DNA of 64,000 nt, taken from NCBI RefSeq assembly GCF_029227855.1, contig NZ_CP074356.1; one strand, written 5' to 3'. Source of the stretch: Escherichia coli (GTDB taxonomy: Bacteria; Pseudomonadota; Gammaproteobacteria; Enterobacterales; Enterobacteriaceae). Below the pieces are notes generated by a model. The model saw only the letters and a program-made list of their open reading frames with translations. It ran no database searches and had not been told where the DNA came from. Numbering within the stretch: the first letter of the stretch is position 1; the number at the start of each line of letters is the position of its first letter. Made by a program: the position numbers and the translations under genes. Below are positions 27,741 to 29,239 of the stretch, one piece after another.

Positions 27741-27890
27741 ATGAAAACCTCTCTGTTTAAAAGCCTTTACTTTCAGGTCCTGACAGCGATAGCCATTGGT
27801 ATTCTCCTTGGCCATTTCTATCCTGAAATAGGCGAGCAAATGAAACCGCTTGGCGACGGCTTCGTTAAGCTCATTAAGATGATCATCGCT
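27741..27890 (+). pseudogene. dctA: dctA 5-prime fragment (codons 1-50 of C4-dicarboxylate transporter DctA) ending at a junction
   Basis: Translation [50 protein letters not shown] matches the DctA N-terminus exactly as recalled, then the frame ends after a 16-aa unrelated tail. The rest of dctA (about 380 codons) is absent. Confidence 0.85.
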
Positions 27891-27891
27891 C

Positions 27892-29239
27892 ATGTCTACG
27901 CCATCAGCGCGTACCGGCGGTTCACTCGACGCCTGGTTTAAAATTTCACAACGTGGAAGCACTGTCCGTCAGGAAGTGGTTGCCGGGTTAACAACGTTTC
28001 TGGCGATGGTCTACTCGGTCATCGTCGTTCCAGGTATGTTGGGTAAAGCAGGCTTCCCGCCTGCGGCAGTTTTCGTTGCAACCTGTCTGGTTGCCGGACT
28101 CGGTTCTATCGTGATGGGTCTGTGGGCTAATCTGCCGTTGGCGATTGGTTGCGCCATCTCCCTGACGGCATTTACCGCATTCAGCCTGGTGCTGGGGCAA
28201 CATATTAGCGTACCTGTCGCGCTGGGTGCCGTGTTCCTGATGGGTGTGCTGTTTACGGTAATTTCTGCCACGGGTATCCGTAGCTGGATTTTGCGCAACT
28301 TGCCTCACGGTGTGGCGCACGGCACGGGGATCGGTATCGGTCTGTTCCTGCTGCTCATTGCCGCTAATGGTGTCGGTCTGGTGATTAAAACCCGCTTGAT
28401 GGTCTGCCCGTTGCGCTGGGTGATTTCGCGACCTTCCCGGTGATTATGTCACTGGTAGGTCTGGCGGTGATCATCGGCCTGGAAAAACTGAAAGTCCTGG
28501 TGGCATTCTGCTGACCATTATCGGTATCTCAATTGTCGGTTTGATCTTCGATCCTAACGTCCATTTCTCCGGCGTTTTCGCCATGCCTTCATTGAGCGAT
28601 GAAAACGGCAATTCACTGATTGGCAGCCTGGACATTATGGGCGCGCTGAATCCTGTAGTCCTGCCAAGCGTTCTGGCGCTGGTGATGACGGCAGTATTTG
28701 ATGCCACCGGAACTATCCGTGCCGTCGCCGGCCAGGCGAACCTGCTGGATAAAGATGGGCAGATCATCGACGGTGGGAAAGCACTGACCACTGACTCCAT
28801 GAGCAGCGTTTTCTCTGGCCTGGTGGGTGCAGCTCCGGCAGCGGTATACATCGAGTCTGCGGCGGGTACGGCGGCGGGCGGTAAAACCGGTTTGACGGCT
28901 ATCACCGTTGGCGTGCTGTTCCTGCTGATTCTGTTCCTCTCTCCGCTCTCTTACCTCGTTCCGGGGTATGCAACGGCTCCGGCGCTGATGTACGTTGGCC
29001 TGCTGATGCTGAGCAACGTGGCGAAAATCGACTTTGCTGATTTTGTTGATGCGATGGCGGGTCTGGTTACGGCGGTATTCATCGTGCTGACCTGTAACAT
29101 CGTAACAGGCATCATGATCGGCTTCGCGACTCTGGTGATTGGTCGTCTGGTTTCCGGCGAATGGCGCAAGTTGAACATCGGTACGGTCGTTATCGCCGTG
29201 GCGCTGGTGACCTTCTATGCGGGTGGCTGGGCTATCTAA
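27892..29239 (+). pseudogene. ghxP: Guanine/hypoxanthine permease GhxP (YjcD; NCS2/AzgA family) interrupted by two single-base deletions (or sequencing errors)
   Basis: N-terminal 183-aa ORF (27892-28443) and C-terminal 232-aa ORF (28541-29239) are the two halves of one AzgA-like permease of about 449 aa. The coding frame shifts near the A-run at 28387-28390 and again near 28496. Confidence 0.8.

Follow-up and report, generated by a model that had tools for sequence, protein, structure and literature searches.

The junction between dctA and ghxP at 27891|27892 of the 64,000-nucleotide stretch of Escherichia coli DNA analysed here (the window) is probably, with a probability of roughly 0.8 as judged from the sequence, a border of a non-biological chimera in the record rather than the product of a natural rearrangement. 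The joint had initially been annotated as an isolated junction; it turned out to be the left edge of a 10.6-kb block substitution, and the provenance of the DNA and the quality of the consensus both change at the two edges of this block.

The left junction

The dctA start codon lies at 27741, and codon 50 (GCT, Ala) occupies 27888-27890, as established by direct reading and by alignment to K-12 dctA; the 50 codons end in ...KLIKMIIA at 27890. Base 27891 (C) still belongs to dctA, as the first base of codon 51 (CCT), and the base at position -1 of native ghxP is a T. Position 27892 is the A of the ghxP ATG, and a C stands at the same place in native dctA, according to alignments with K-12 dctA and ghxP. 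The breakpoint between the two genes is placed at 27891|27892. The megablast match to dctA runs on to 27896, because the four bases TGTC at 27893-27896 are present in both parents, dctA and ghxP. The features found around this joint are the following.

27741..27891, plus strand: truncated dctA, codons 1-50 and the first base of codon 51
27741..27941, plus strand: chimeric 66-codon ORF, composed of 50 dctA codons and a 16-aa out-of-frame tail running through the ghxP start
27891..27892, no strand: left junction, from the alignments to K-12 dctA and ghxP

The initial annotation had read dctA as correct for 50 codons, which holds, and had let its identity end at 27890, one base short of the position found here. 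Its placement of the ghxP ATG exactly at 27892 was borne out, and the 66-codon ORF with a 16-aa tail that it had described is present in the ORF list at 27741-27941. It had also called for an alignment at the breakpoint in search of microhomology: none is present. The two genes meet bluntly and share 0 bp at the crossover (dctA CTC|CTGTC vs ghxP CTT|ATGTC), and the similarity around it is imperfect, extending to 6 of 10 positions, a marginal value (about p = 0.02, uncorrected).

Upstream of the joint, the truncated dctA runs on unbroken from native pdeK and bcsC. The frame of ghxP is +1 relative to that of dctA, and no Shine-Dalgarno sequence for ghxP is found at the joint. Neither the native soxR-ghxP intergenic DNA nor the remainder of dctA was found anywhere in the 64-kb window, and no sigma-70-like promoter was found from 27500 to 28100; the initial description of ghxP as devoid of its native promoter and 5' UTR agrees with both results.

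The substituted block and its right junction

The DNA to the right of 27891 corresponds to a continuous segment of the K-12 chromosome, from ghxP to nrfA, which ends within nrfA and there abuts rcdB. The block, its genes and its right end are listed below.

27892..38529, plus strand: whole substituted block, 10,638 bp, ghxP-yjcE-yjcF-actP-yjcH-acs-nrfA', corresponding to K-12 4,278,479-4,289,127
27892..29239, plus strand: ghxP from its ATG, in 2 pieces, with single-base deletions at 28386 (A5 to A4) and 28495 (C3 to C2)
29390..31038, plus strand: yjcE, in 3 pieces, with indels at 29398, 29784 and 30380
31192..32482, minus strand: yjcF (pentapeptide-repeat protein), in 2 pieces, with indels at 31257-8 (+2), 31738, 32110 (-2) and 32149
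32659..34306, minus strand: actP, split into three ORFs, with deletions at 33172 and 33542
34303..34617, minus strand: yjcH, intact
34817..36774, minus strand: acs, in 2 pieces, with a deletion at 35701 (G3 to G2)
37166..38529, plus strand: nrfA, first 1,364 nt only; the fusion ORF continues into antisense rcdB and ends at 38830
38529..38530, no strand: right junction, nrfA nt 1364 joined to rcdB nt 265 on the opposite strand
38530..38794, minus strand: truncated rcdB (yhjC), first 265 nt, unbroken into native yhjB, treF, ccp and gadA

By gene-order comparison, the K-12 home of the block genes lies ~600 kb away, on the other side of oriC. In the clone that matches the flanks (see below), the native counterpart of the block measures 10,670 bp, from dctA codon 51 to rcdB nt 266, and the replaced native genes are the rest of dctA, yhjJ, kdgK, pdeH, yhjG, yhjE, yhjD and most of rcdB. 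The removed and inserted lengths, 10,670 vs 10,638 bp, differ by <0.3%; in the clean donor type, the block is 10,647 bp long. Outside the block, gene order is normal both on the left (dppABCDF, yhjV, bcsGFE, bcsRQABZC, pdeK, dctA') and on the right ('rcdB, yhjB, treF, ccp, gadA, gadX, gadW, mdtFE, gadE, hdeD). Relative to K-12 coordinates, the block is in inverted orientation, which maintains leading-strand polarity, and its GC skew is positive throughout.

The right joint falls mid-codon in nrfA and rcdB alike, with no bases shared at the crossover and no microhomology. No direct or inverted repeat, IS end, att site or target duplication was found linking or flanking the two joints. The block carries core chromosomal genes only, and no transposase or integrase gene. 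At either joint, native sequence directly abuts native sequence, with no scar (FRT, loxP), marker, linker or restriction site. An ORF at 39967-41616 had at one point been taken for actP, which would have set the right junction at ~41.6 kb; this assignment was rejected, as the ORF is treF, a product of 549 aa as well, and the junction was moved to 38529|38530.

The initial annotation had argued that a break at a start codon is typical of designed constructs or of annotation-guided splicing, and not of recombination. The conclusion that the origin is unlike natural recombination can be retained, on the strength of the provenance of the block described below; the start codon is a poor basis for it. 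The chance that a break coincides exactly with the opening base of a start codon is roughly 0.2-1% over four break ends, by a post-hoc estimate from gene density, and the coincidence amounts to a single weak post-hoc observation. As a mark of a designed construct, it is not borne out by the joint, which bears no scar, marker, linker or restriction site and leaves a ghxP that is out of frame and itself frameshifted; as a sign of cutting along annotated features, it finds no counterpart at the partner junction, 38529|38530, which is mid-codon in both genes.

Lineage of the flanks and of the block

The two flanks (1-27891 and 38530-64000) are collinear with NCTC8623 over 53,362 bp, with 7 SNPs, 4 in the left flank and 3 in the right, and 0 indels in each. 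A match of about 100.0% to the 25-kb right flank is found in only six complete genomes, namely GPEC1222, NCTC8623, CFSAN029787, OY754349, VL46 and RMDEC364. The native ghxP-nrfA region was compared from three of these six genomes (NCTC8623, GPEC1222 and CFSAN029787), and a different allele was found in 3/3 of the flank-clone members so compared: the block differs from the clone's own ghxP-nrfA sequence by 54-55 substitutions in NCTC8623, 56 in GPEC1222 and 76 in CFSAN029787. For a block of clonal descent, about 1.4 substitutions would be expected (Poisson P about 7e-65).

The best matches to the block include GB089, 09-00049, STEC711 and O22:H8 strains, among others, from which it differs by a single substitution. 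The dpp-bcs-dctA flank of GB089 is 0.52% diverged from that of the window. Since the block matches GB089-type sequences and the flanks match NCTC8623, the window combines alleles of two E. coli lineages, switching exactly at the joints. Pseudogenisation of the Shigella kind, or an IS-mediated rearrangement, was also considered and rejected: the flanks are about 100% identical to those of ordinary E. coli, and no IS is present.

Error profile of the block

Alignment of the block with GB089 shows 16 differing columns, made up of 13 indel events and 1 substitution. Of the indels, ten are length changes in homopolymers of 3-5 bases; the other three are one change in a T2 run, the loss of one (AT)2 unit and the deletion of a lone G between C runs. 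Bases in runs of at least 3 make up 16.5% of the block, and the homopolymer bias of the indels is significant (p = 2.6e-6). The contrast with the flanks, 13 indel events vs 0, is marked as well (Fisher p = 7e-11), and the flank genes, unlike five of those in the block, are all intact. Twelve of the indels are private to the window; the A5-to-A4 deletion at 28386 alone is found elsewhere.

A ratio of 13 indels to 1 substitution within one block is the signature of a low-coverage or single-read long-read consensus, of about 99.85% accuracy, and not of mutation. Natural divergence, even under mismatch-repair deficiency, yields more substitutions than indels; the observed ratio is the opposite, and the errors of the block are therefore read as of the sequencing type and not as decay. 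Decay in a mismatch-repair mutator was rejected as an explanation, because MMR-deficient lines gain more transitions than indels and the flanks would be affected too. Systematic errors common to other error-prone public assemblies were likewise rejected, except for 28386, as 12 of the 13 events are private.

The sole substitution of the block is located at 31137, in the yjcE-yjcF intergenic region. With respect to GB089, NCTC8623 and GPEC1222, it is a C to A change which turns AAAACAAA into an A8 run, and it looks like another consensus error in a homopolymer context rather than a genuine SNP. Errors are not evenly spread along the block: they occur about once per 400 bp between 28386 and 33542, and are completely missing from the last 2.8 kb (35702-38529), which comprises the 5' portion of acs, nrfA' and the intergenic DNA between them; variable coverage would be expected to produce such a pattern.

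Occurrence in other sequences

No match spanning the left junction was found in any of 5,426 complete E. coli genomes, and the exact junction 36-mer is absent from the contigs of GTDB representative genomes and from JGI metagenome contigs. In PLSDB, the region is found only in mislabelled chromosomes, none of them with the junction. The chimeric DctA' (66 aa) and the Acs (363 aa) and ActP (257 aa) fragments are all absent from the public gene-call collection.

The GhxP frameshift product of 183 aa, generated by the A5-to-A4 change at 28386, is found in 32 blocks of the same collection. At the six of these loci examined, it stands next to soxR, as in the native arrangement, in unrelated lineages 95-99% identical. 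Position 28386 may be a recurrent slippage hotspot, or the short product may represent a genuine ghxP pseudogene allele in some lineages; the slip is recurrent or polymorphic, and the 183-aa GhxP is no pointer to the donor of the block. In two of the six loci (L011 and L012), all other genes of the region are intact and identity to the window is only about 98%. Another one (L010; GCA_033660195.1, JAWVHK010000011.1) has the region in its native context, with pdeC split into 3 pieces, soxS into 2, yjcE into 3 and acs into 3, and is an independent example of an indel-rich E. coli assembly. It was discarded as a donor of the block, from which it differs by 51 mismatches and 32 gap columns.

Origin of the chimera

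A lineage switch and indel errors both confined to the block, between clean flanks, make an artefact of the record the most likely explanation. The backbone would be high-quality sequence from the E. coli clone of NCTC8623, GPEC1222 and CFSAN029787, in which the native 10,670-bp stretch would have been swapped for a 10,638-bp ghxP-to-nrfA block carrying the allele of a GB089-like lineage. We infer that this substitution would have taken place during sequence production and not in a cell. Candidate routes are a misassembly or a gap filled wrongly, where the sample was mixed or contaminated, or a deliberate in-silico splice starting from an annotated CDS start; the start-codon coincidence would then be either chance or a trace of annotation-guided cutting. 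The near-equal lengths of the two stretches, 10,670 vs 10,638 bp, point to a size-constrained substitution, and no recombination mechanism predicts such a match. A simple in-silico swap of equal lengths was considered and is not demonstrated, as the three lengths involved, 10,638, 10,647 (clean donor type) and 10,670 bp, differ.

Chimeric contigs and misjoins, as produced from mixed samples in long-read, hybrid or gap-filled assemblies, resemble the window in their abrupt, non-homologous joints devoid of biological junction features. They are alike also in that lineage and consensus accuracy switch exactly at the joints, and in the rate of homopolymer indels, which at about 1.5 per kb is typical of a low-coverage long-read or single-CCS-read consensus. 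Two features of the window are unlike typical cases. Misassemblies usually arise at repeats, whereas none is found at the joints of the window, and this counts against an artefact; furthermore, the two joints refit a foreign block of similar size into a backbone that stays collinear, an unusual outcome for an artefact too. Two other points can be raised against this reading: in principle, some member of the flank clone could have had its ghxP-nrfA region replaced earlier by a GB089-like allele through homologous recombination, and the orientation of the block keeps leading-strand polarity, as an inversion spanning the origin would also give.

Alternative explanations

The last point leads to a natural process that fits the geometry of the window: two nested oriC-spanning inversions, one between rcdB and nrfA and the other between dctA and the ghxP start, which would have exchanged blocks of ~10.6 kb between the replichores by illegitimate recombination and restored everything between the blocks. 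Such an exchange entails two reciprocal junctions elsewhere in the genome, one joining the upstream sequence of ghxP, ...GATGTTTTCTT, to CTGTCATCTTTTGT of dctA, the other joining ...ACCGCTGATAC of rcdB to GCAGGACTTCATC of nrfA. The inverted block, with its leading-strand polarity and positive GC skew maintained, has the expected arrangement, and the imperfect similarity at the left joint (6/10 positions) lends it some weak support; an origin from the opposite replichore in the polarity-preserving orientation is also shared with the origin-symmetric inversions known in Enterobacteriaceae. The known cases, however, use rrn operons, IS elements or prophages and rearrange the genome's own DNA, whereas the window has a foreign allele, errors confined to the block, no repeats and nearly matching sizes. 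The allele alone is hard to reconcile with inversions, with 54-76 SNPs vs about 1.4 expected, and so are 13 homopolymer-type indels and 1 substitution restricted to the block. Both crossovers have 0 bp of identity, no IS, rrn, prophage or other repeat links the joints, the near-equal block lengths are left without explanation and the junction occurs in none of the 5,426 complete genomes. Nested inversions are, on balance, improbable.

A foreign allele would be accounted for by a real ectopic acquisition, in which a 10.6-kb GB089-like fragment entered by transformation, transduction or conjugation, took the place of the dctA-rcdB block through end joining independent of homology, and then underwent pseudogene decay. 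The blunt joints and the inactivation of all large genes of the block but nrfA' are consistent with such a history. Decay, on the other hand, does not account for a 13:1 homopolymer-biased indel spectrum, which is a signature of sequencing errors, next to flanks without any decay, and no mobile-element features are present. Incoming homologous DNA normally integrates at the homologous locus, and the joints would require an end joining of the Ku/LigD kind, which E. coli is not known to have. An acquisition is rated slightly less probable than the inversions.

Least probable of the three is an engineered strain, in which, for instance, recombineering or CRISPR replacement moved ghxP and the genes behind it into the dctA locus: the insert does begin exactly at the ghxP ATG, a boundary at a start codon being shared with scarless recombineering replacements, and the removed and inserted stretches are similar in size, but the joints have no FRT or loxP scar, marker, linker or restriction site and no homology-arm signature, ghxP starts in a different frame from dctA and lacks a ribosome-binding site, nrfA and rcdB are both cut mid-codon at the right joint, the cargo genes are frameshifted and no functional rationale is apparent. 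Even taken together, inversions, acquisition and engineering constitute an unlikely set of explanations.

The literature search for rearrangements of dctA with ghxP or yjcD returned nothing relevant beyond the Salmonella SNAP paper. That work reports dctA as a locus at which experimental selection, acting to raise the expression of a gene, can drive duplication and large rearrangements of gene order (PMC9016547). The case of the window is different: it concerns E. coli, its dctA is lost beyond codon 50 and it shows no duplication.

Implications for the reading of the window

Taken at face value, the window would show the loss of dctA, kdgK, pdeH and five other genes, a promoterless ghxP driven by dctA, and five fresh pseudogenes (ghxP, yjcE, yjcF, actP and acs). 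If the block is an artefact, all of these, the gene losses, the dctA-driven ghxP and the pseudogenes, are false calls. On present evidence, and going by the sequence, the dctA-ghxP junction does not appear to be a real biological feature. The window also offers a diagnostic: coinciding shifts in nearest-relative lineage and in indel error rate, exactly at both edges of a segment, are grounds to distrust its junctions.

Were the junctions real, an E. coli of the NCTC8623 clone would have taken up a 10.6-kb core-chromosome fragment from a distantly related E. coli and inserted it at a non-homologous site by blunt, homology-independent joining of both ends, in place of a block of nearly equal length. 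This is a remote prospect. Such an event would be a rare instance of ectopic replacement without homology among strains of E. coli, and would amount to a way of passing genes within the species that is not expected where NHEJ is lacking.

Other variation in the flanks

Two further observations concern the left flank. At the left end of the window, positions 1-2023 were compared with the corresponding GB089 locus, which has an IS621 upstream of dppA that is absent from the window; apart from this, the first 2 kb (eptB, tRNA-Pro, RtT) show 100% identity to GB089, and the next 26 kb are 0.5% diverged. Such a mosaic is what recombination normally leaves between lineages of E. coli. Between yhjV and bcsG, the region 9920-11292 contains three tandem units, spaced about 483-485 bp from start to start and about 95% identical, which match three type I toxin genes of the Ldr family in the annotations of NCTC8623 and GB089; the number of Ldr units at this place is an ordinary case of strain-variable copy number.
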